DNA of 64,000 nt from Escherichia coli. GTDB taxonomy: Bacteria > Pseudomonadota > Gammaproteobacteria > Enterobacterales > Enterobacteriaceae. The translations under genes were made by a program, and so were the position numbers. Below, piece after piece: positions 50,680 through 61,644 of this stretch. Position 1 is the stretch's first letter. Each line of letters begins with the position of its first letter. Location of the stretch: the NCBI RefSeq assembly GCF_011045215.1, contig NZ_CP049201.1; one strand, given 5' to 3'. Below the pieces are notes generated by a model that was given only the letters and a program-made list of their open reading frames with translations, made no database searches and was not told the DNA's origin.

Positions 50680-52079
50680 ACACTCGCCAGCTACTGAGCG
50701 TCGGTATCGATATCGGCACTACCACCACCCAGGTGATTTTCTCCCACCTGGAACTGGTTAACCGTGCGGCGGTGTCGCAGGTGCCGCGCTACGAATTCAT
50801 CAAACGCGAAATTAGCTGGCAAAGCCCGGTGTTCTTTACCCCTGTCGATAAACAGGGTGATTTAAAAGAAGCGGAACTGAAATCGCTGATTTTAGAGCAA
50901 TATCAGGCTGCGGGCATTGCACCGGAAAGCGTTGATTCTGGTGCCATCATCATCACCGGTGAAAGCGCGAAAACCCGCAATGCTCGCCCGGCGGTGATGG
51001 CGCTCTCTCAGTCGCTGGGCGATTTTGTCGTTGCCAGCGCCGGGCCGCACCTCGAATCCGTGATCGCCGGTCACGGAGCCGGGGCACAAACCCTTTCTGA
51101 ACAACGGCTGTGTCGGGTACTGAATATCGACATCGGCGGTGGCACCGCGAACTACGCCCTGTTCGATGCCGGAAAAATCAGCGGCACTGCCTGCCTCAAC
51201 GTCGGTGGTCGCCTGCTGGAAACCGACAGCCAGGGGCGCGTGGTTTACGCTCATAAACCGGGGCAGATGATTGTGGATGAGTGCTTCGGCGCAGGCACCG
51301 ACGCCCGTTCGCTGACCGGCGCGCAGCTGGTGCAGGTTACCCGGCGGATGGCAGAGCTGATTGTCGAAGTGATTGACGGAACGCTCTCGCCGCTCGCGCA
51401 GGCATTGATGCAAACCGGTTTGCTGCCCGCAGGTGTTACGCCCGAAATCATTACGCTTTCTGGCGGCGTGGGCGAATGTTATCGCCACCAGCCCGCCGAC
51501 CCGTTCTGTTTTGCCGATATTGGCCCGCTTCTGGCAACGGCGCTGCATGACCATCCGCGCCTGCGTGAGATGAACGTGCAGTTTCCGGCGCAAACCGTGC
51601 GTGCCACGGTGATTGGCGCGGGGGCACATACCCTTTCGCTCTCTGGCAGCACAATCTGGCTTGAGGGCGTACAACTGCCGCTGCGCAATTTGCCGGTGGC
51701 GATCCCGATTGATGAAACGGATCTGGTGAGTGCCTGGCAACAGGCGCTGATTCAACTGGATCTTGATCCCAAAACTGACGCGTACGTGCTGGCGCTTCCC
51801 GCCTCGCTGCCTGTGCGTTACGCCGCGGTACTGACGGTCATCAACGCGTTGGTCGATTTCGTCGCGCGTTTTCCGAATCCGCATCCCCTGCTGGTGGTGG
51901 CCGGGCAGGACTTTGGTAAAGCTCTGGGCATGTTGTTGCGCCCACAGCTACAACAACTCCCGTTGGCAGTCATTGACGAAGTGATTGTCCGCGCGGGGGA
52001 CTATATCGACATTGGTACGCCTCTTTTTGGCGGATCGGTTGTGCCGGTGACGGTGAAATCACTCGCATTTCCTTCCTGA
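50676..52079 (+). CDS. eutA: Ethanolamine ammonia-lyase reactivase EutA
   Basis: 467-aa ORF, ATGA overlap with eutH; ends at the island junction. Confidence 0.85.
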   Translation: MNTRQLLSVGIDIGTTTTQVIFSHLELVNRAAVSQVPRYEFIKREISWQSPVFFTPVDKQGDLKEAELKSLILEQYQAAGIAPESVDSGAIIITGESAKTRNARPAVMALSQSLGDFVVASAGPHLESVIAGHGAGAQTLSEQRLCRVLNIDIGGGTANYALFDAGKISGTACLNVGGRLLETDSQGRVVYAHKPGQMIVDECFGAGTDARSLTGAQLVQVTRRMAELIVEVIDGTLSPLAQALMQTGLLPAGVTPEIITLSGGVGECYRHQPADPFCFADIGPLLATALHDHPRLREMNVQFPAQTVRATVIGAGAHTLSLSGSTIWLEGVQLPLRNLPVAIPIDETDLVSAWQQALIQLDLDPKTDAYVLALPASLPVRYAAVLTVINALVDFVARFPNPHPLLVVAGQDFGKALGMLLRPQLQQLPLAVIDEVIVRAGDYIDIGTPLFGGSVVPVTVKSLAFPS

Positions 52080-52172
52080 ATACTGTAGTTATCAGGCGTG
52101 GCGCTGGGTTGCGGGGTGTTAGTGGGATTATATCCGGCTGTGTATCCGGTCGGGGTGATTGGTCTGTATAGC

Positions 52173-52198
52173 AAAACCCGGCGCGGGGCCGGGTGAAC
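52173..52198 (-). terminator. Rho-independent terminator after island gene 52201-52764
   Basis: Minus strand reads ACCCGGCcccgcGCCGGGTTTTG; an identical hairpin recurs at 53821-53843. Confidence 0.55.
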
Positions 52199-52200
52199 TA

Positions 52201-52764
52201 TCATTCAGGGAACAAGTTGATTTGAAGCAAACTGCCAATGTATTTACCAGTGCTTTTAATTTTTCGCTTTGATGGCTTACACGAATTCAGGTTGACACCA
52301 GCCTGGCTAGATATTGGCTTGTATTGCCGCTCCGCCAGTACGATCAGGTCTGCCGCGTCTTTTAGCTTTCCATCGTTAGCCAGTTCCAATGCTCGATCCG
52401 CCATTTGCCCGCATTGTTGAATCAGCTTAAGTTGCGATACCTCCAGTCGCAATTGCTGGATTCGTTCTACCACTTTCGCCCTAATGCGCTTAGTTTCACG
52501 CATTCCCATTCTTAATGCCTGGTTGCCAGTAAGTGAGTAAACCTCTTTTTCTTTCCTGAAGTTTGCGGCTTTACCGTCAGCTTGGACGCGCATTTTATGC
52601 GCTTCCAAGAATTCGCCCTCCAATTCATCCCTGATCTTCGCGTTGAATCTGTCGTTCTTGAGTTCATTTAACCCTTCCGCCTTGCGGATCTGGTTGATTA
52701 ACTCCAACAATTCATCACTGCGGATACGCCACTCGCTATCAACCTGTACCAAGTCAAACATGTT
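52201..52764 (-). CDS. Hypothetical island protein (about 187 aa from ATG MFDLVQVD; track ORF extends to a TTG at 52854)
   Basis: ORF track; SD-like gggag upstream of the internal ATG; coiled-coil-rich; no confident family assignment. Confidence 0.5.
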   Translation of the reverse strand, partial: NMFDLVQVDSEWRIRSDELLELINQIRKAEGLNELKNDRFNAKIRDELEGEFLEAHKMRVQADGKAANFRKEKEVYSLTGNQALRMGMRETKRIRAKVVERIQQLRLEVSQLKLIQQCGQMADRALELANDGKLKDAADLIVLAERQYKPISSQAGVNLNSCKPSKRKIKSTGKYIGSLLQINLFPE

Positions 52765-52920
52765 GTTGCTCCCGTTTTGCTGCCATAGGGCAACGGCTCG
52801 CCAGCCTTTATCACCTCCTTTAGTTGTTGCGATTCTTAACTGAATGGTTATCAAAACGCTGCGTTAATATCATTGATATGTATCAAATTTGTTTTGTGAC
52901 GCGACAATGCCTTGTGAATA

Positions 52921-52948
52921 TCAATAAAAAACCCAGCGCTATGGCTGG
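52921..52948 (-). terminator. Rho-independent terminator after island gene 52995-53723
   Basis: Minus strand CCCAGCcatagcGCTGGG followed by TTTTTTATTG. Confidence 0.55.
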
Positions 52949-52994
52949 GCTTCTCTTGATGGCTGGTTTTGTAGCTAATCGTTGGCTTTAAGGG

Positions 52995-53723
52995 TTAAGC
53001 AACAATATTAATCCCGCTCCTTGTCGCTGCCTCTTTGGCAATTTTCCCCTCGTCCTCCAGTTTAGCTAACGCCTTGTACATCCAGTGGCGGCCCGGTGCG
53101 CCATGCAGCTTGCCATCTTTGCCGATCTTACCGAACGCATGTAACGCCAAATCGTCGATAGTCCCCTTGTATCCGCCTTGCTCCTTAAGCCATTGCTCAA
53201 GCTGTTCTACTTTGAATTTTGCCGGACGTCCGCCAGCCGCTTTTTGTTGTTTAGCTGGTTCTTCTGCAATATCGCTTTTGTTGTTTAAGTCCGTCATGAC
53301 TGGTTCTCCTACAATAGCGTCGCCCTTGGTCTCGATTTGTTGATTAACTGGTTTGTCTACAATATCGATTTTGTTGTTTAGCTGGTTTTTCAACATATCA
53401 ATCTCAGCCTTTAGCGCCTCGTTTTCTCTGGCTAGTTCTTCGCAACGCTTGATAAATTTTTGTTCCATGCCGTCCGGGCTATCAACGTGCGCCGTACCCA
53501 TTACGATCTTCCCGTTGCTATCGAAGATGACAGCTTGCCAACCGACTGCGGCGAGCATTTTAAACACATCATCAGCGGTCTTGTTTGTTGTATCGCGACG
53601 CCCTTTAAACTTGTGGCTAGCAGCGCCTTTGCCTTTGAAGCCCATTGCCTCAGCGACATCTTGCCGCGTCATCTTGCGAGCGCGCTTGTTCATGCCTAAC
53701 TCAACCCAATCCATGTATTCCAT
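52995..53723 (-). CDS. Hypothetical island protein, basic N-terminus plus coiled-coil and internal repeats
   Basis: 242-aa ORF; repeated NNKIDIVDKPVNQQ / NNKSDIAEEPAKQQ segments, mirrored by imperfect DNA tandem repeats around 53280-53400. Confidence 0.55.
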   Translation of the reverse strand: MEYMDWVELGMNKRARKMTRQDVAEAMGFKGKGAASHKFKGRRDTTNKTADDVFKMLAAVGWQAVIFDSNGKIVMGTAHVDSPDGMEQKFIKRCEELARENEALKAEIDMLKNQLNNKIDIVDKPVNQQIETKGDAIVGEPVMTDLNNKSDIAEEPAKQQKAAGGRPAKFKVEQLEQWLKEQGGYKGTIDDLALHAFGKIGKDGKLHGAPGRHWMYKALAKLEDEGKIAKEAATRSGINIVA

Positions 53724-53820
53724 ACATTACCTCATTTTGTCGCTAAACGTTTTGCTTTCTAATTTATCAACAAAAAAGCGGGTGATGGTAGCCGCTTTGA
53801 TGGGGAAGTTGACAGGGATC

Positions 53821-53843
53821 AAAAACCCGGCGCGGGGCCGGGT
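53821..53843 (-). terminator. Rho-independent terminator (second copy of the 52173 hairpin)
   Basis: Minus strand ACCCGGCcccgcGCCGGGTTTTTGATC, just downstream of gene 53861-54091. Confidence 0.55.
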
Positions 53844-53860
53844 ATTAGCAAGTTAGATGA

Positions 53861-54091
53861 TTACTGGGTATCGCTGTCAGAAAGTAGTCCAATTGATTTA
53901 AAGAATTTCATCACATCCTGATAGCGATACATGACGCCCCGCCCGGTTCCCAGCACATCAACAGGGTCGGGGAATGGAGTTCCGTTCTGTTCCCATTTCT
54001 TACGCCACGAATAAAACGTTCCCCTGCTAATTCCGCCCAGCATCCGGCAGATGGCAGGGCGGCTAAGAAGGATTACTTCATTTTTATCCAT
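53861..54091 (-). CDS. AlpA/excisionase-like HTH DNA-binding protein
   Basis: 76 aa; LSRPAICRMLGGISRGTFYSWRKKW resembles the AlpA-family HTH. Confidence 0.5.
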   Translation of the reverse strand: MDKNEVILLSRPAICRMLGGISRGTFYSWRKKWEQNGTPFPDPVDVLGTGRGVMYRYQDVMKFFKSIGLLSDSDTQ

Positions 54092-54110
54092 TGTTTAATC
54101 TCCCGTGTGT

Positions 54111-54299
54111 TTATTTTGCGTAGATTAAGGCAAATGCTCTTTTGGCTTTGCTTAGTTCGTATTCGCGTTTTTCTATGATTGCCATCAGTTCTTGTGCGGT
54201 GGCTGGCACGCCCGCTCTTATCAGCGCAATCTTAGTATCCATAGCGCACACTCTTTCACGCACCATATCGAAGATAATTTCCGCTCTATCGTGTTTCAT
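54111..54299 (-). CDS. Small hypothetical island protein (62 aa)
   Basis: ORF track; co-directional and closely spaced with the AlpA-like gene. Confidence 0.4.
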   Translation of the reverse strand: MKHDRAEIIFDMVRERVCAMDTKIALIRAGVPATAQELMAIIEKREYELSKAKRAFALIYAK

Positions 54300-54502
54300 G
54301 ATTTCACCTCATATTTGTTGCTAAACCTTGTAAACCCTTGTTTGACTACAAAATACACCTGGTTAAGCGACTGATAAAATGATTTAGGTCAATTTATTGG
54401 TTGATGATTTATGTCTGATTGGATTTGTCTACAAATGGCAGGTTAGTCAACAAATGATGAAACCAGGGAATGGCGGTTATAATGTCAGCGGGGATTGTGA
54501 GA

Positions 54503-54545
54503 AAGGCCCGGGTAGGTTGCTAACTGCCTGGGCCTTTATTTTTGG
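54503..54545 (+). terminator. Plus-strand rho-independent terminator candidate inside the minus-strand gene array
   Basis: aaaggcccgggtagg..cctgggccttt hairpin (about 14 bp stem with two G-U pairs) followed by atttttgg; on the minus strand no U-tract follows. Confidence 0.45.
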
Positions 54546-54648
54546 CGCGTGTACGTGAAATCTGGAAAATTTGCAGGGTAGTTGTTGAGGGATTTTTCGC
54601 GTAGGAGCGTGAAGGGTCCGCCAGTCATCGCCCTGACGTAGCGGTGAA

Positions 54649-55050
54649 TTACTTGCGAGGCTCACCCATCGGCCAGGCACCTTCATTGCGACGATAACCA
54701 ATCCGGTACTCTTCCGGCAGCGGCAAGCCCTGCTCACGATATGGACGCAGATCGAAGCCAAAAACAGGATCGTCGTCGTAGGCGAGGAATAGCCCGGCAG
54801 GCTCTGCCACGCGTTCGATAATCAGTTCCCCATCTTCAACGAAGAAGATCAGATTATCGCGAAAGTCCGTTACCTCACTGACGTGATAACATTCGGCATG
54901 TGCGTCCAGCCAGGCTTCTCGGTATTCCTGAATCTCGGCTTCTGACCATGTTGAAACAGGACGCTCCCAAATTCCCAGGCTGGATTTGCCCTGGCGGGAG
55001 AATAATTTTGCCTCTTTGCTCTGCTCTGGTTTTCTGTTTAAAAAGCTCAT
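54649..55050 (-). CDS. Hypothetical island protein (133 aa)
   Basis: ORF track; SD ggagaa upstream of ATG; start overlaps a TAA of an upstream open frame (TAATG). Confidence 0.5.
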   Translation of the reverse strand: MSFLNRKPEQSKEAKLFSRQGKSSLGIWERPVSTWSEAEIQEYREAWLDAHAECYHVSEVTDFRDNLIFFVEDGELIIERVAEPAGLFLAYDDDPVFGFDLRPYREQGLPLPEEYRIGYRRNEGAWPMGEPRK

Positions 55051-55186
55051 TATTCTTCTCCTTTGAACGGATTGTTCTTGCTCTCTAATAACTTAGCGCG
55101 ACCCAGTAACGTCCGGGCAAGCGCCTCCGCCTTCCTTAGCCTAAGCCCTGCGTCTTCTGCGTCCAGATCTACATTCCTGATAGCCT

Positions 55187-55450
55187 CTACAGCCTGCTCC
55201 GCTGCGTCCGGGCGTGAATCCACTTAAATATGCCGATATGCTCACGAAAGTCTGGATGCTCATATTGCCAGCGGCAGATTGTTCTGAAGCTCGGCATGTC
55301 AGGCATGTTGCCAATCTCTCTGAGACTATGGCCTTCAGCTACCAGCAAGCAGATTTCTTCAGCGATAGCGACCCCATACTTAGCGCTTTTTCTGCTTAAA
55401 CTTGTGACATCAACAGGTAAGTTATTGATTTCTTTATCATCACCCTTCAT
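55187..55450 (-). CDS. Hypothetical HTH-like island protein (87 aa)
   Basis: ORF track; SLREIGNMPDMPSFRTICRWQ segment is HTH-like; preceded by the 11-bp repeat array. Confidence 0.45.
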   Translation of the reverse strand: MKGDDKEINNLPVDVTSLSRKSAKYGVAIAEEICLLVAEGHSLREIGNMPDMPSFRTICRWQYEHPDFREHIGIFKWIHARTQRSRL

Positions 55451-55522
55451 AATTACCCCCGAATTGATAGCGAATTGATAGCGAATTACCCCGAATTACC
55501 CCCGAATTACCCCCGAATCACC
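55450..55522. repeat. Array of seven 10-11 bp direct repeats (gaattaccccc / gaattgatagc)
   Basis: taattaccccc, gaattgatagc x2, gaattacccc, gaattaccccc x2, gaatcacc, read directly from sequence. Confidence 0.9.
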
Positions 55523-55527
55523 ATCAT

Positions 55528-55809
55528 TTAACCCTCGCCTACGTCTGCGTCGATGCTTGCTAACTGGCTGTGTAGATCGCGTTCAATCATTTTTACCTTT
55601 TTCACAAAATCCCTTTCCTCGGCGGTGGCGGGCGCGCCCTGGGCTATGTTTTTCGTGAGGTCGTGGAAAGTGCCGAAAACATAAAGGGAGAACAGCCTTA
55701 ATTGTTGCCGCTTCATTGGCAAATCACTGTTGCTATGTTTGATCTCAGCGACGCCTTTCGAAATAACACGGGCCATCCCATGACAAATTCTTAACGTAAG
55801 CGCAGACAT
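55528..55809 (-). CDS. Hypothetical island protein (93 aa)
   Basis: ORF track only. Confidence 0.4.
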   Translation of the reverse strand: MSALTLRICHGMARVISKGVAEIKHSNSDLPMKRQQLRLFSLYVFGTFHDLTKNIAQGAPATAEERDFVKKVKMIERDLHSQLASIDADVGEG

Positions 55810-55930
55810 GATATTTACTCCCCGACTGGTATAATGAACGTGGTTTTAAACGTTGCTATTTGCTAACCATTTAATCTGTTAACTCAATTTCGCATTGTTG
55901 GCCCGGCACGAACACCGGGCTTTTCTTTAC

Positions 55931-56272
55931 CTATTCGAAATAGCTTCCAATATCCGGTGTCCGGGTATCAGTTTTCCGGGTCGGCTCGAAGTACGATTCC
56001 AGATCCGGCGTTTTCGGCCCACGCTGGGCGTTGGCGGCGGGTTGCTTTTCTTCTGGCTGTTCCGGCTGTTTACTACCAAATCGGCGCTCCAGTTGGTCCA
56101 TCAGCACTACCATCATTTCCTGGACCAGCTTTTCATCGGCTTTATCAAGGTTCTCCAATACCATCGCCATCCCTTTGCGGAATTTAAGCTCAGCGTCGTC
56201 CGGTTCCGGTGCTGATTCGTTTGCTTTAACTGCCAGGGCGATCCGGCGTTTTGCTTCATCCAAAAAATTCAT
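55931..56272 (-). CDS. Hypothetical acidic island protein ending in SYFE motifs (113 aa)
   Basis: ORF track; C-terminus DLESYFEPTRKTDTRTPDIGSYFE. Confidence 0.5.
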   Translation of the reverse strand: MNFLDEAKRRIALAVKANESAPEPDDAELKFRKGMAMVLENLDKADEKLVQEMMVVLMDQLERRFGSKQPEQPEEKQPAANAQRGPKTPDLESYFEPTRKTDTRTPDIGSYFE

Positions 56273-56277
56273 TTTGT

Positions 56278-56721
56278 TTATTCCCCCATGTGGAAATAGT
56301 CATCTAAGCGGCGATTAAACTCGTCGCTGCCATCGAAATATTCACGGATACTTTTATTGACCAGATCATCACCGTCGAAATACTGGCGCGTGAAATCGTC
56401 CAATTCCCCATCGAAGTATTGACGTGTGAAATCGTCTAATTCCCCTTCAAAATATTGACGCGCATCAGGCGCTCTGTTTGGCGCTGTAGCAATCTCAGAT
56501 TGATTGCCCTGTAACTTATCGACGTTTGCTAAATACACGCCCAGTGAGCTGTTTGTTCCCATTACCGCAAGCATTTTCCGGCGATCTGCCATGTTCGGCG
56601 CGAGCGATGATAATTGAGCTTTAATTTTGTCCACTTCCTGATTAACAATACGGTCAATCAGTGGTTGATTCGTGCGAATAATTTCCTGTGCCAACTGGCG
56701 AATATATTCTTTGCGTGTCAT
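56278..56721 (-). CDS. Hypothetical island protein with tandem QYF[ED]GELDDFTR repeats (147 aa)
   Basis: ORF track; encoded by 36-bp tandem DNA repeats at about 56376-56463. Confidence 0.5.
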   Translation of the reverse strand: MTRKEYIRQLAQEIIRTNQPLIDRIVNQEVDKIKAQLSSLAPNMADRRKMLAVMGTNSSLGVYLANVDKLQGNQSEIATAPNRAPDARQYFEGELDDFTRQYFDGELDDFTRQYFDGDDLVNKSIREYFDGSDEFNRRLDDYFHMGE

Positions 56722-56739
56722 TTCTTATCTCCGTTCATC

Positions 56740-57123
56740 TCATTTCTGTAAAAAACCCATACCGTGGCCCAGGCGATTTGAAATTTTCCCGGCAAGCATC
56801 CGGCGAATATGTTTTTCGTTGATGATGTCGTGAGTGACCGGATCTTCACCTTTCATACATTCCGGCATCTGGTCAAACAATACGGAAGCGCCTTCATCAA
56901 TAATCTCAGTTAAGACTGCTGGCAGCATATTAATGATGCGTTCTGCTTCGTCGTTCATTGCTTTATCGAACGCTTTTTTATCCATTGCTTCGGCGGATGG
57001 TTTGTAATTGTCGCCAGTCAGGTTAAGGTAAGTGTTGTTTGGGTGATACATGGCATTCACTCCTTTTACTTTGATTGTTGCGATTTCTTTGTTTTTGTTA
57101 ATTGTGGTGCCTTTGACTTTCAT
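56740..57123 (-). CDS. Hypothetical island protein (127 aa)
   Basis: ORF track; ATGA start/stop overlap with the upstream HNH-like gene. Confidence 0.45.
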   Translation of the reverse strand: MKVKGTTINKNKEIATIKVKGVNAMYHPNNTYLNLTGDNYKPSAEAMDKKAFDKAMNDEAERIINMLPAVLTEIIDEGASVLFDQMPECMKGEDPVTHDIINEKHIRRMLAGKISNRLGHGMGFLQK

Positions 57124-57539
57124 GCTGCTTCTTCCTTCAATAATTGTGGCAATTTGCCTGTTAGTTCGATTTCTTCATTAATAGATGCAAGTAACTGTCT
57201 CAGTTTGCGATGTAATAGCTGGTGACGCTCTCTCGGCATTTTTACCAGGTTGCTTAAGCGGTTATTCTGCGGATCGTAGTCCCGGTGATGGATATCATAT
57301 TTTCGCTCATCGTAAACACCGTAGCACCATAACCAGGCAGCCTTTTCTATTGTCATGCAGGTACGTTTTCCGTTGCTTAAACAAATGGTTATACTCAGGT
57401 GACCGCGATGTTTTTCGTTTAAGCTGCCTTTAATTACCTGGCCTGTGCTGCGGTTGTGAAATAAACCAGTTTCAGGGTCGTAGTGATATTTCTGTCGTAA
57501 TATATCAACTGATAACCGTAGTCTTGTAAGATTGTCCAT
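57120..57539 (-). CDS. HNH-family endonuclease-like protein
   Basis: 139 aa; AAWLWCYGVYDERKYDIHHRDYDPQNNRLSNL resembles the phage HNH_3 pattern (from memory). Confidence 0.55.
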   Translation of the reverse strand: MDNLTRLRLSVDILRQKYHYDPETGLFHNRSTGQVIKGSLNEKHRGHLSITICLSNGKRTCMTIEKAAWLWCYGVYDERKYDIHHRDYDPQNNRLSNLVKMPRERHQLLHRKLRQLLASINEEIELTGKLPQLLKEEAA

Positions 57540-57571
57540 GATGTTCTACCTCAATGTGATTGCTGTGTTAA

Positions 57572-57757
57572 TTATCTTTCTTCTTGTGGCCTATTCAGCC
57601 AGGCCTCGATCTCGCTACGCCAGAATAATAAACGACAATTTCGCGGCGTAAATGGTTGGGGTATTGTCTTATCTTTTAATAGCCATCTTCGAATCGTTCT
57701 TGTTGATACCCCCGCTATTAATGCGAAAGCTCGCAGATCTATAACTTCATCTCTCAT
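57572..57757 (-). CDS. AlpA-family transcriptional regulator
   Basis: Internal ATG with SD gaggt; MRDEVIDLRAFALIAGVSTRTIRRWL...LFWRSEIEAWL matches the AlpA HTH signature; the track's N-terminal extension is low-complexity repeat translation. Confidence 0.6.
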   Translation of the reverse strand: MRDEVIDLRAFALIAGVSTRTIRRWLLKDKTIPQPFTPRNCRLLFWRSEIEAWLNRPQEER

Positions 57758-57780
57758 GTTCTTACCTCGATTAAAAAGGA

Positions 57781-57839
57781 CCGCCCCCAGGGAAAGAAGA
57801 AAGAGGAAAGAGGAAAGAGGAAAAACTTCCTGGAGGCGG
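57781..57839. repeat. Homopurine heptamer repeat (GAAAGAR x4) inside an 11-bp inverted repeat
   Basis: ccgcccccagg [agggaaagaagaaagaggaaagaggaaagaggaaaaa] cttcctggaggcgg; 24-82 nt upstream of the AlpA-like start codon. Confidence 0.85.
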
Positions 57840-58537
57840 GTAATTCGGATTCCTTGAATCAATATCCCATGTGATACTTAATATTATAAAGGGCGGCGGG
57901 CTATGTCGCTATTTTTGCCATAGTGTGACACCATTAATTTATTAACAAAAAGTGCTATTTATTAAATCTTTTTTCGGCAGGTGCAAGAAAAATAATTGCG
58001 ACACGGTAGGGTAGCGGGCGATAATAATCATGTAAGGAGTAGCCACCTTACGCCTCCAAATGTGATCGATAAAAATAATAGTCTCAATTCTTTCTCCCGC
58101 TTCTCGGCGGTTTTTTTGCCTGCAATCACACATCAAAAAAACACATCGAATTGATATGCCTTTAAAACGCAATATAACGCATTTTGACGGCCTTAATTTT
58201 TGCCTATCCACTCGGAAGCGTAAGCCTGTTTTGATTCGTCTGGCGTGGAATGGTGCGGCGGTAATATCAGATCTCAGCGTTCTGTGTGGTGGGATGGAAT
58301 AGCCTGGCAGGATCTGCGTGTGATTTCATTCATCCAACCTTGGATGAATGGTCCGATCTGGTCAGTAGTCCGGCACAAATAAAAAGCGCCTGCGGGCGTA
58401 GCAGACGCTTTGTGTACAGGCTTATCAGTACGGGATGTGCACGAATGATTATACCACCCTCAGAAAAACGTTTGCTTTTGCACTTAAACGGATAAGTGGT
58501 ATTTCTTGGTCTTCATTGGTTTTAGCTCACCATAGGC

Positions 58538-58765
58538 TCATTTAGGTGCGCCCCTGTCGATAATTCGGTACATGTTCTCGGTATATCTCCCGTTAATCAC
58601 CGTTCTGGTAACAACAATCACACCGTTTTCCTCCAGAAAGGCAATGGCCCGCTTCACTCCCTGGCGGCTTACACCGGATAGCTGCGCCAGCCTGTCAATG
58701 GAGATGTTGTATTTGTCCGGCTGGCTTGTCAGGATCTGGAATACCGCTCGTGCTGTTTTCGTCAT
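58538..58765 (-). CDS. Winged-helix/HTH DNA-binding protein (75 aa), candidate island regulator
   Basis: ISIDRLAQLSGVSRQGVKRAIAFLEENGVIV HTH-like segment; divergent from the plus-strand cargo module. Confidence 0.5.
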   Translation of the reverse strand: MTKTARAVFQILTSQPDKYNISIDRLAQLSGVSRQGVKRAIAFLEENGVIVVTRTVINGRYTENMYRIIDRGAPK

Positions 58766-59037
58766 GGCAAAAACTCATTGAAATTGGATACCCTTAGAAC
58801 GCTCTCAAACGCTCCGTAATGCGATGAGAATTTTACCTAAGCAAGTGTAGCTCTTTATTAGTTTTATGATGCCGTAGGCCGATAGAAGGTGCGCTCTCTG
58901 AAGTTTCATTGTCTATCAGTGGTGGGTAATGCTGCCTTTACTATTGGCGTCAAGAAAATCACTGGTGTAGATTGGGCGAATAGTTTACTATTCAAACAAG
59001 GCACAATGGCCTTAGCGGATTGATGTCAGGAGATACC

Positions 59038-59385
59038 ATGTCAAAAATAGTTACTTTGTTTGCGACTAAGCGAGAAGGGAAATCCCTTTCTGTGCGCACT
59101 CGTAAGCCAAAAGCTATGACTGGCTTGCGTAAAACAAATCGTCTGACGCATCTTGACGCGTTAGCGTATCGACTAGGATACCAGTTGGTGCGCGGTAAAA
59201 GTGTCATGTTTCGCTACACTGCTACTCTCGATCACGAAGAAAACAAAGTGATGAATGCGGCCTCGCCTATGGCTGTACCACGAGTAAAAAAAATGACGTT
59301 CACACAAGCGTGTGATTTATCAAAAGATTTATTCGATTCACGAGAAGAACGCTTAAAGAGTGTAAGCTTTGATGGTCCAGAATGA
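59038..59385 (+). CDS. Hypothetical basic protein (115 aa), candidate antitoxin or partner of downstream gene
   Basis: ATG at 59038 with SD aggaga 5 nt upstream; stop overlaps the downstream start by 14 nt; AT-rich. Confidence 0.5.
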   Translation: MSKIVTLFATKREGKSLSVRTRKPKAMTGLRKTNRLTHLDALAYRLGYQLVRGKSVMFRYTATLDHEENKVMNAASPMAVPRVKKMTFTQACDLSKDLFDSREERLKSVSFDGPE

Positions 59386-59887
59386 ATTTATTGGTAAGGT
59401 CTACAGTGATAACAAGTTTAAAACAAACGATGAATTAAAGAGCTTTAAGGATTCGTTTATTTATCATTGGAGATATGGACATCATCCTGATTTTGGAAAG
59501 GATACTCTTTTCCATAAACCCCCGTGTGTATATCCTATCCATTTACGTAAAGTCCATGTAAATATTGGTCTTTATACCAATCAGTACGGCTATAGCGGGA
59601 CAGAACAATGCTGGGATGACTGGTCTACTGGTCGTTATGGTCCCGGTGGTTTCGAAAAAGTTACCCCTACATCTGATGCTTATCTTATATACGCTGTATG
59701 TAAAAATAGAAATGCTGGCGTGTTAGACTTCTGGTTTCCTCCCGCACACAAAAACGCTGAGTTCGAATCCTCTGTACAGTTTGTGGCTGAGATGGCTGAT
59801 AAGTTTTATGAGTCTATCAAGGCGGACCCGATGCCGCGCGATCAGAATCCTTGGCATACGGGGTATATAGTTAAAAAACCAGCCTGA
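59372..59887 (+). CDS. YafO-like toxin-domain candidate (171 aa)
   Basis: FIYHWRYGHHPDFGKDTLF...HLRKVHVN...SDAYLIYAV resembles remembered YafO motifs (FISYKRDG..PDTFGRDALY, HIHL, AHLVYC); family assignment unverified. Confidence 0.45.
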   Translation: MVQNEFIGKVYSDNKFKTNDELKSFKDSFIYHWRYGHHPDFGKDTLFHKPPCVYPIHLRKVHVNIGLYTNQYGYSGTEQCWDDWSTGRYGPGGFEKVTPTSDAYLIYAVCKNRNAGVLDFWFPPAHKNAEFESSVQFVAEMADKFYESIKADPMPRDQNPWHTGYIVKKPA

Positions 59888-60438: not shown

Positions 60439-61644
60439 TCACGGTTCAAGTGGATTACCGTCACCAGCCAATATTGAATCAATAGCGTCGGCGTAATCCT
60501 GCATCATTGCTCGCCGTTGCTTCAGGTAGGCCGCCTGGTTATAAACGCCGCGCACACCTTTCGGGACGTGGGCCAATTGGATTTCGATCCAGTCTGGTGA
60601 GTATCTGCCAGACTCATTAAGCGCCGTTGAAAAGGTGGTCCGCCAGCCATGACCAGTGGCAATGGATTTATAGCCGATCCTCTCAAGCGCCTTCAGTATC
60701 GCGCTGGCTGAAAGTGGCTTATCCATGAATCGACCAGGGAAGACGAAAGCACTGTATCCGCTCCTTGTAAACTGGTCCTGTAATAGCTCCACCGCCTGCC
60801 GTGATAGCGGGACCACATGCGGGCGGCGGGCCTTCATGACTTCAGCGGGCAATGTGATTGTTGCGTCCTCCAGGTTTATCCATTCCCAACGGCACAAACG
60901 CAGTTCTGCGGTCCTTAATGCCGTTAATATAAGCAAACGTATTGCCGTCTGAATCTGGACGCTCCCGGCCCTCTCAAGGGCTTTGTAGAAGGCCGGAATT
61001 TCACTAATCGGTATCCACGCGTTGTGACCAGGTCGGCGGGCCTTCAGTGCCGTATCAAGATCTGCAACCGGATTCCTCGTTACCAGTTCGGTGATAACGG
61101 CAAACTTGAAGATCTCACCGATGCGCTGGCGTAGCTTGCGGGCCTGCTCCGGTGCGGTACGTTCTTTCTTCTGGAGTAATGCCAGCACGTCACGGGCGGT
61201 TATATCGACAATCGACCGCTTGCCAAGTACCGGATAGACGTCTTTTTCTAGGGCCGATCTGACCTGTTTTGCATAGGATTCCGACCACCCTCCAACCCTA
61301 GTAGCAAACCAGTCTTCCGCCACCTTCTTAAATCCTGCCGCCATGTTGAGCGCATCAATGGCTTTTTCCTTGCGGGCTTGTTCCACTGGGTTAATTCCAT
61401 TGGCAATAAGGGATCTGCTCTCCGTGGCGCGCCTGCGTGCTTCTTTGAGTGTGATTAGCGGGTAAACACCAATAGCCTGCAAAAACTCTCGTTTATTCAA
61501 CCAATACCTGAATCGCCAGTATTTCGAACCGTTGGGATGCACCAGCAAAAACAGCCCCGGCGTCAGTGAATCGGTGAGTTTATAGGGCTTGTCCTGCGGC
61601 TGTGCGGCGTCTATGGCCTTTGCTGTGAGTGGTGTCTTGCTCAA
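60439..61644 (-). CDS. intZ: P4-type tyrosine integrase
   Basis: 401-aa ORF; N-terminal arm-binding-like domain plus catalytic region (HGWRTT...RGVYN); at the island edge next to eutB as for CPZ-55 IntZ. Confidence 0.85.
   Translation of the reverse strand: MSKTPLTAKAIDAAQPQDKPYKLTDSLTPGLFLLVHPNGSKYWRFRYWLNKREFLQAIGVYPLITLKEARRRATESRSLIANGINPVEQARKEKAIDALNMAAGFKKVAEDWFATRVGGWSESYAKQVRSALEKDVYPVLGKRSIVDITARDVLALLQKKERTAPEQARKLRQRIGEIFKFAVITELVTRNPVADLDTALKARRPGHNAWIPISEIPAFYKALERAGSVQIQTAIRLLILTALRTAELRLCRWEWINLEDATITLPAEVMKARRPHVVPLSRQAVELLQDQFTRSGYSAFVFPGRFMDKPLSASAILKALERIGYKSIATGHGWRTTFSTALNESGRYSPDWIEIQLAHVPKGVRGVYNQAAYLKQRRAMMQDYADAIDSILAGDGNPLEP

Follow-up and report, generated by a model that had tools for sequence, protein, structure and literature searches.

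A candidate small RNA gene in a CPZ-55-type island at the eutA/eutB site of Escherichia coli

Why does a strong hairpin with a U-tract, oriented for plus-strand transcription, lie between minus-strand genes of an integrated element? We addressed this question for the 349-bp gap at positions 54300-54648 of a 64-kb stretch of E. coli DNA (the window), which is flanked by minus-strand ORFs of 62 and 133 amino acids. A preliminary description had listed the hairpin, a perfect TATAAT and the extended -10-like element TGATAAAAT in this gap, and had offered two explanations, a small antisense RNA of about 60 to 170 nt or a stop for readthrough from the eut operon. Gap, hairpin, U-tract and both -10-like elements were found where it had placed them. 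It had also seen no plus-strand protein gene, which held up: the sole plus-strand ORF of the gap is a mechanical call of 53 aa with a TTG start (54397-54558), and it cannot be conserved because K-12-type relatives have unrelated sequence in the left half of the gap.

The island and the gap

The last 12 kb of the window run from eutA, which ends at 52079, through a 9.6-kb island to eutB. The island occupies the same insertion site as the CPZ-55 cryptic prophage of E. coli K-12, and the eutA/eutB site has been named a prophage insertion hot spot (PMC6652756). The island extends from a tyrosine integrase gene (60439-61644, minus strand) back towards eutA. Its genes are all on the minus strand except for a two-gene cargo on the plus strand at 59020-59887; all of those from 52201 to 58765 are minus-strand genes, and the RNA unit described below lies on the plus strand, convergent with the 133-aa gene. 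In PHROG scans of the island we found the integrase, a short replication-initiator-like winged-helix protein, an AlpA/excisionase-like regulator, an HNH endonuclease and a truncated small-terminase-like protein of 87 aa, and to the left of the gap a DNA-binding protein of 76 aa and an antirepressor-like protein of 217 aa (52201-52854, PHROG anti-repressor matches). Besides the antirepressor-like protein, the distal module has the 62-aa protein, an AlpA-like DNA binder and an XRE-like protein. We call the island mosaic because none of the complete E. coli genomes covers at least 80% of 52080-58000.

Some features of the gene array are recorded here in their own right. The distal 62-aa and 76-aa genes end at a canonical minus-strand terminator (53843-53825). 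The same 19-nt minus-strand hairpin, ACCCGGCCCCGCGCCGGGT followed by a T-run, is found in two identical copies at 53825-53843 and 52176-52194, after the 76-aa gene and the 217-aa gene, i.e. one terminator is used twice within the distal module. The small-terminase-like gene (55187-55450) is shortened, with 87 aa versus about 138 aa in relatives, and next to it are the 57-aa and 133-aa ORFs (54649-55223), which are unrelated to the YffP and 727-aa proteins in that position elsewhere. The packaging module of this island appears to be rearranged. On comparison, we rejected the view that the 133-aa protein might be a piece of YffP or of the 727-aa neighbour. An acidic motif, RQYFEGELDDFTRQYFDGELDDFTRQYFDG..., is repeated in tandem in a 147-aa protein (56278-56721, minus strand) that matches no family. 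Finally, the plus-strand genes beside the integrase code for proteins of 121 and 172 aa, the latter matching phrog_1651 (unknown function), and may be a cargo or defence pair.

The gap itself is modular. At least three unrelated alleles exist of its A+T-rich left half (54300-54470), which presumably controls the 62-aa/76-aa operon. Operator-like repeats lie between the promoter of the putative small RNA and the 62-aa gene at 54313-54326, 54341-54354, 54423-54436 and 54443-54456. They are of two kinds, TTTG(A/T)CTACAAA and GTTAG(T)CAACAAAT, the latter in inverted copies. Together with a promoter-like site on the minus strand (TAGACA-16-AATCAT, 54431-54404) they form a segment that looks like a regulated divergent promoter region. 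The left-half allele of K-12 differs and has a CRP site (Footprint-seq preprint). The element TGATAAAAT (54372-54380, plus strand) also lies inside the left half. For 54346-54474 we obtained a consensus fold of -16.7 kcal/mol with a covariation term of -0.2, on account of which a conserved structured RNA in this segment was rejected.

Anatomy and conservation of the RNA unit

The right half of the gap contains the elements of a short transcription unit. A -10 element, TATAAT, is located on the plus strand at 54478-54483, 18 nt ahead of a 14-bp hairpin. The predicted start is a G 7 nt past the -10 element, with which an unpaired 5' segment of 12 nt begins in the predicted folds (GGGGAUUGUGAG, 54490-54501). 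The hairpin (54502-54537) is made up of the left arm AAAGGCCCGGGTAG (54502-54515), an 8-nt loop GUUGCUAA (54516-54523) and a right arm (54524-54537); its stem has two G·U pairs. Behind it follow an A and TTTTT (54538-54543). The U-tract UUUAUUUUU (54535-54543) has its first three U inside the stem, and the 3' end is predicted at about 54541-54543. The predicted small RNA of about 54 nt, GGGGAUUGUGAGAAAGGCCCGGGUAGGUUGCUAACUGCCUGGGCCUUUAUUUUU, would thus extend from 54490 to about 54543. A covariance model built from 14 variants found a single copy in the window (54478-54543, 96 bits) and one per related locus.

Homologues of the gap were present in about 300 of 5426 complete E. coli genomes, in one place per genome, and all loci that were read at full length adjoin eutA. 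A metagenome scan added 12 loci, and three small circular E. coli elements of 8 to 9.6 kb in a plasmid collection also carry the unit. Its right-hand neighbours are four unrelated genes, i.e. those of the 133-aa protein, of YffP in K-12, of the 727-aa protein and of a serine recombinase. One locus beside a serine recombinase gene (L034) carries only the conserved block that adjoins the unit elsewhere. In K-12 the RNA unit is identical base for base to that of the window (NC_000913.3, about 2,563,241-2,563,294, minus strand, in the yffP-yffQ spacer), with 94% identity overall in the right half of the gap; the RefSeq annotation of NC_000913.3 has no RNA gene at this site.

The three plasmid-type relatives are E. 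coli 'plasmids' of 8.0 to 9.65 kb (L036, CP057168.1; L037, CP057337.1; L038, NZ_CP062859.1), two of them deposited as circular and the 8.0-kb one as linear. They are non-mobilizable and no replicon typing is shown for them. Their gene set is like that of the eut islands (HTH, HNH, small unknowns, TerS-like and YffP-like), a serine recombinase replaces the tyrosine integrase, and the small RNA unit sits directly behind its stop codon. Possibly they are relatives of CPZ-55-type islands that have been excised or are autonomous. A K-12-type right half with 94% identity also occurs on a 110,970-bp plasmid of Klebsiella pneumoniae (NZ_KY751926.1, 90870-91026), which may have been captured from the E. 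coli K-12 chromosome or may be an artefact of assembly or cloning.

How good is the promoter? TATAAT has the A at position 2 and the T at position 6 of a sigma-70 -10 element. On the other hand, the window allele has neither a -35 element at 16-18 bp nor a TGn: at 17 bp it reads TGATGA (2/6), and GGT stands in place of TGn. The consensus scan made no promoter call at 54478 because the -35 is absent, and it found 6 promoter-like sites versus 7.4 expected. A lone TATAAT is insignificant, and the case therefore rests on comparison. K-12-type copies have the extended -10 element TGATATAAT with CTGAAA, a 4/6 match to the -35, 17 bp upstream and are predicted to be good extended -10 promoters, while the promoter of the window allele may be weak, with no -35 and no TG extension. 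RpoD holoenzyme binds the yffP-yffQ spacer of K-12 in vitro as a SELEX peak (PMC3946193). The motif given by the authors, CTCACA-16-TATCAC, is directed towards yffQ and overlaps the -10 element and start described here on the opposite strand, so that the orientation is ambiguous.

Across about 20 variants the -10 element is TATAAT, TAAAAT or TATAGT in all but one (TGTAGT), and it is retained in at least three unrelated upstream contexts. The similarity of the alleles begins at about the -35 of the proposed promoter, and the conserved unit comprises about 35 bp before the predicted start and everything from there to the U-tract. The nine bases GATTGTGAG, 4 to 12 nt past the predicted start, were unchanged across the variants. 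This core, also written GAUUGUGAG, is unpaired in every predicted fold and more conserved than the hairpin. Variation is found instead in the discriminator, i.e. the six bases that precede the start, and in the spacer that leads to the hairpin, which has 0 to 10 extra nt. While a single TATAAT is not beyond chance, the combination of a conserved -10 element, an invariant core and a terminator is, judged from these alignments.

The terminator is the interchangeable part. In the relatives the U-tract is UUUGUUU(U) and stands behind three different, unrelated hairpins (GGCCCGGGUAG..., GGGGCUGGCG... and GGGGAACAGGC..., each followed by UUUGUUU), i.e. the hairpin has been swapped twice for an unrelated one with the U-tract retained. 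A conserved -10 element, an invariant unpaired core and an interchangeable terminator are the anatomy expected of a small base-pairing RNA gene. Like Hfq-type sRNAs the unit has a conserved single-stranded seed, the core, ahead of a terminator. The tail is interrupted and differs in this from the long uninterrupted 3' U-tail of that class, and the K-12 Hfq-CLASH tables show no entry for it.

We then asked which strand the hairpin serves. No other terminator-like site within 52000-57000 is as strong; its stem has 14 pairs, of which 8 are G-C. The 57-nt plus-strand RNA folds with -27.2 kcal/mol (z = -4.0; none of 200 shuffles was as good), the hairpin of the opposite strand with -16.4 kcal/mol (z = -2.8). 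On the plus strand it has the properties of an intrinsic terminator, namely a G+C-rich stem with a short loop, a U-tract, and pairing that is kept in evolution on this strand. In an alignment of the 14 variants with the commonest hairpin type, 99.5% of the cells are paired, 7 of the 14 pairs vary and two of these changes are double compensations. All four sites at which a Watson-Crick pair became a wobble pair are C-to-U changes on the plus strand, which give G·U in the plus-strand RNA versus A·C on the opposite strand. The plus-strand hairpin was the more stable one in 20 of 20 variants by 1.4 to 17 kcal/mol, with 2 to 5 G·U pairs versus 0 to 1 on the minus strand. As far as sequence can tell, this asymmetry speaks against both a DNA palindrome and a main role on the minus strand.

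Searches for a transcript, known families and targets

For the Term-seq check suggested in the preliminary description, published K-12 tables were consulted at the equivalent of the U-tract. The tables of Adams et al. 2021 have no 3' end in 2,563,2xx-2,563,3xx, hence none near 2,563,241, and no yffO-R entry; silence of the locus is a possible reason. The K-12 Hfq-CLASH tables (Iosub 2020) have no entry for yffP or yffQ. In the texts of the Cappable-seq and SMRT-Cappable-seq studies, whose coverage of start sites is possibly incomplete, no start site was found. Either the gene is silent under laboratory conditions or there is no gene, and this is the weakest point of the argument.

Rfam scans at E <= 1 for the window and E <= 0.1 for six relatives, including the C4 antisense RNA family (RF01695), gave no relevant match. 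When the gap, the RNA unit and the adjacent block were compared by BLAST with 50,697 phage records, nothing significant was returned, and no likeness to any phage cos or pac region was seen. A pattern scan of genome contigs yielded chance matches only, the sole enterobacterial one being inside an ABC-transporter gene, and two scans of viral contigs gave nothing apart from one chance match in a coding region. A full-text literature search for the sequence found no paper that contains it. Thus the gene would be new in that we found no Rfam family, no annotation and no paper with its sequence; the design, in which a mobile element encodes a small RNA with a promoter of its own and an intrinsic terminator, is a familiar one.

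Seed complements in the window were at chance level, and duplex scans in nine elements revealed no conserved target beyond the own locus of the RNA and the adjacent block. The block is the second-best seed-complementary site in several elements; it does not co-vary with the seed. A plus-strand site at 55596-55613 lies inside a coding region and not on an mRNA, and was judged to be a chance match. For a type I toxin-antitoxin pair, the only candidate was a 30-aa minus-strand ORF (54536-54628), the ATG and frame of which are lost in relatives by single-base indels.

The adjacent block is a conserved non-coding segment next to the terminator (54544-54626) that is present in all alignments of the intergenic region, even at loci without the small RNA unit (L026, L034). 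As sequence GGCGCGTGTACGTGAAATCTGGnAAATTnGCAGGGTAGTTGTGAGGGATTTTTCGCGTAG it was found in all relatives (window 54544-54626; L026; L034; L036, 7130-7200), and the phage BLAST search had no match to it. The block resembles a duplicate of the RNA gene without the hairpin, having a similar -10-like element, a paralogous 5' motif GGGTAGTTGTTGAGGGA (54576-54592, direct repeat D2) and a copy of the post-terminator sequence, ATTTTTCGCGTAGGAGCGTGAA (54592-54613). The copy of the 5' motif is about 85 bp away from the original; it reads GGGTAGTTGTGAGGGA in most loci and GGGGGATTGTGAGGAAGA in L005, where it matches the RNA 5' end of other loci over 17 nt. The two copies point to an ancient tandem duplication, possibly with protein binding for packaging or replication control. 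Readings of the block as a sigma-54, CRP or LexA site were rejected, as we infer from the spacing.

Many relatives (L004, 4250-4300; L006; L023; L024; L026) have 2 to 4 copies of TATCCGG(TA) between terminator and block, and further to the right a site, AATCAATGACTTAG, that fits the IHF consensus perfectly. Both have been lost from the window. Repeats and IHF site are reminiscent of a cos/pac or origin region.

Competing explanations and possible function

We favor the view that the unit is a discrete transcription unit, i.e. a self-contained sRNA gene of about 54 nt with a sigma-70 -10 promoter and an intrinsic terminator, which is common to CPZ-55-family islands and circular elements. From the comparison of the relatives we put its probability at roughly 0.6. 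Of the small RNA in the preliminary description, the short form, which runs from TATAAT to the U-tract, is the one that stood: -10 element, core and plus-strand terminator are conserved as a unit. The long form of about 170 nt from TGATAAAAT found no support. It appears very improbable that a longer structured RNA of about 165 nt starts there and shares the same terminator. The -10-like element is extended and the plus-strand fold of 211 nt has a z-score of -3.95; yet most of this score stems from the terminator, the TG of the element is not conserved and reads GG in most relatives, the consensus fold of the segment is weak with its covariation term of -0.2, and those K-12-type and circular relatives which have the short unit lack the segment.

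The hairpin could also be a terminator only, which blocks plus-strand transcription from eut or from spurious antisense promoters; TATAAT would then be incidental, and a discrete small RNA would not be made. Among the plus-strand intrinsic terminators after eutA the hairpin is the first strong one, and CPZ-55 has been reported to prevent functional eut expression (PMC7617246; PMC6379469); moreover, the K-12 Term-seq data show no sRNA 3' end and the window allele is devoid of a -35. A terminator alone, including the readthrough stop of the preliminary description, nevertheless leaves the adjacent -10 and core unexplained. It does not account for a -10 that keeps its fixed, short distance where three unrelated sequences lie upstream, for the extended -10 with its 4/6 -35 in K-12, for a 9-nt core that surpasses the hairpin in conservation, or for the unit in circular elements outside eut. 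We consider it unlikely, and hold that stopping eut readthrough is a plausible but secondary role. About as improbable is a bidirectional terminator that acts mainly for the convergent minus-strand genes, with the plus-strand transcript as a by-product. There is no minus-strand terminator between the 133-aa gene and the RNA unit, while canonical ones are found behind other minus-strand genes of the island; in the circular elements the recombinase stop codon lies directly against the hairpin and the opposite tail is moderately U-rich (UUUAAUCUU, UUUCUUGU), and even the reverse hairpin of the window retains its -16.4 kcal/mol and z = -2.8. However, the minus-strand hairpin is the weaker one in every variant, down to -6 kcal/mol in L002 and L015, the substitutions that create wobble pairs spare the plus strand only, and the minus-strand tail in the window is CUCACAAU. 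Little credence is due to an element acting at the DNA level, be it for packaging, as an origin or as an array of operators. Here proteins would bind to GGGGATTGTGAG and its copy in the block as repeats, and the inverted repeat would form a cruciform or be bound by a protein, with transcription irrelevant or only activating. The hairpin-less paralogue of the motif about 85 bp away, the conservation of the block without the RNA unit, the IHF-consensus site and (TATCCGG)n repeats near it in relatives, the TerS-like protein and HNH endonuclease of the island and the A+T-rich left half of the gap are in line with such an element. But a palindrome should be strand-symmetric, and here pairing is preserved only in the plus-strand RNA; in addition, the hairpin sequence was swapped twice with retention of the U-tract, and the phage records searched showed no likeness to a cos or pac region.

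If the discrete sRNA gene is real, its product would be a base-pairing regulatory RNA with the 5' core as its working part. It would be transcribed back-to-back with the promoter region of the distal module and convergently with the upstream module, and would be perfectly complementary to leftward transcripts that pass the upstream gene; no minus-strand terminator precedes the unit. In an OOP-like mechanism the RNA would pair with readthrough or 3'-UTR transcripts of the upstream genes and then destabilise or stop them, with the result that the two modules are uncoupled. The hairpin would at the same time halt plus-strand transcription, including that from eut. It is just as possible that the RNA acts in trans, on a target of a helper phage or of the host. 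The RNA has a predicted promoter of its own opposite to the operon and is convergent, as a cis-antisense RNA would be; an overlap with a coding region or ribosome-binding site of a target was not found in the window. About 105 nt separate the RNA 3' end (54543) from the stop codon of the 133-aa gene (54649), and about 190 nt separate the RNA start (54490) from the start codon of the 62-aa gene (54299); in the circular relatives the terminator directly adjoins the recombinase stop codon. The 'antisense' of the preliminary description thus applies in a loose sense, that of an RNA on the opposite strand, but no coding sequence is overlapped in the window.

The closest known arrangement is that of the lambda OOP RNA, with P22 sar and P1 c4 as a looser parallel. 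OOP RNA has 77 nt, its own promoter on the strand opposite to a long operon, and an intrinsic terminator. The predicted RNA shares the short length, the own promoter, the convergence with the upstream gene, the back-to-back position to the next module and the intrinsic terminator. Unlike the RNA of the window, OOP covers the 3' end of the cII coding region, with a proven RNase III-dependent cleavage; there is no sequence similarity between the two. We therefore offer an OOP-like mechanism specifically as a tentative analogy, with odds clearly below even. The antisense RNAs of antirepressor and immunity systems (P22 sar, P1/P7 c4, P4 CI RNA) are likewise small RNAs by an antirepressor-like module with DNA-binding regulators. 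Yet sar covers the ribosome-binding site of ant, while the RNA described here is located some 190 nt upstream of the closest start codon, and c4 and CI RNAs are processed from the target transcript, while this RNA has its own predicted promoter. DicF (Qin), IpeX (DLP12) and IsrC (CP4-44) resemble it as RNAs of K-12 cryptic elements with a 5' or internal seed and an intrinsic terminator; in contrast to it they have been detected and annotated, whereas it is unannotated in NC_000913.3 and absent from the Term-seq and Hfq-CLASH tables. With bidirectional terminators it has in common a single hairpin between a plus-strand unit and convergent minus-strand genes, but the hairpin is asymmetric in stability and substitution pattern in favor of the plus strand.

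A further reading, which we consider rather doubtful, takes the RNA as a trans-acting regulator of an undescribed family of satellite-like elements, the seed GAUUGUGAG of which hits a helper-phage or host transcript or, together with the paralogue in the block, controls replication or packaging. Such elements would be integrated at eutA/eutB, integrated by a serine recombinase or present as circles of 8 to 9.6 kb, with HNH and TerS-like genes, and CPZ-55 of K-12 would then carry an intact, silent copy of the regulator.

What the locus means depends on its transcription. If it is not transcribed, it would be merely a strong strand-specific terminator in a cryptic element. If it is transcribed, E. 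coli K-12 would have an unannotated sRNA gene, the sole conserved non-coding gene of a mosaic island family, and its seed with a swappable terminator would be a handle on the self-regulation of these elements or on their interaction with helper phages. It would also bear on the questions whether CPZ-55 is a degraded satellite and which sequence makes the island polar on eutBCLKR.
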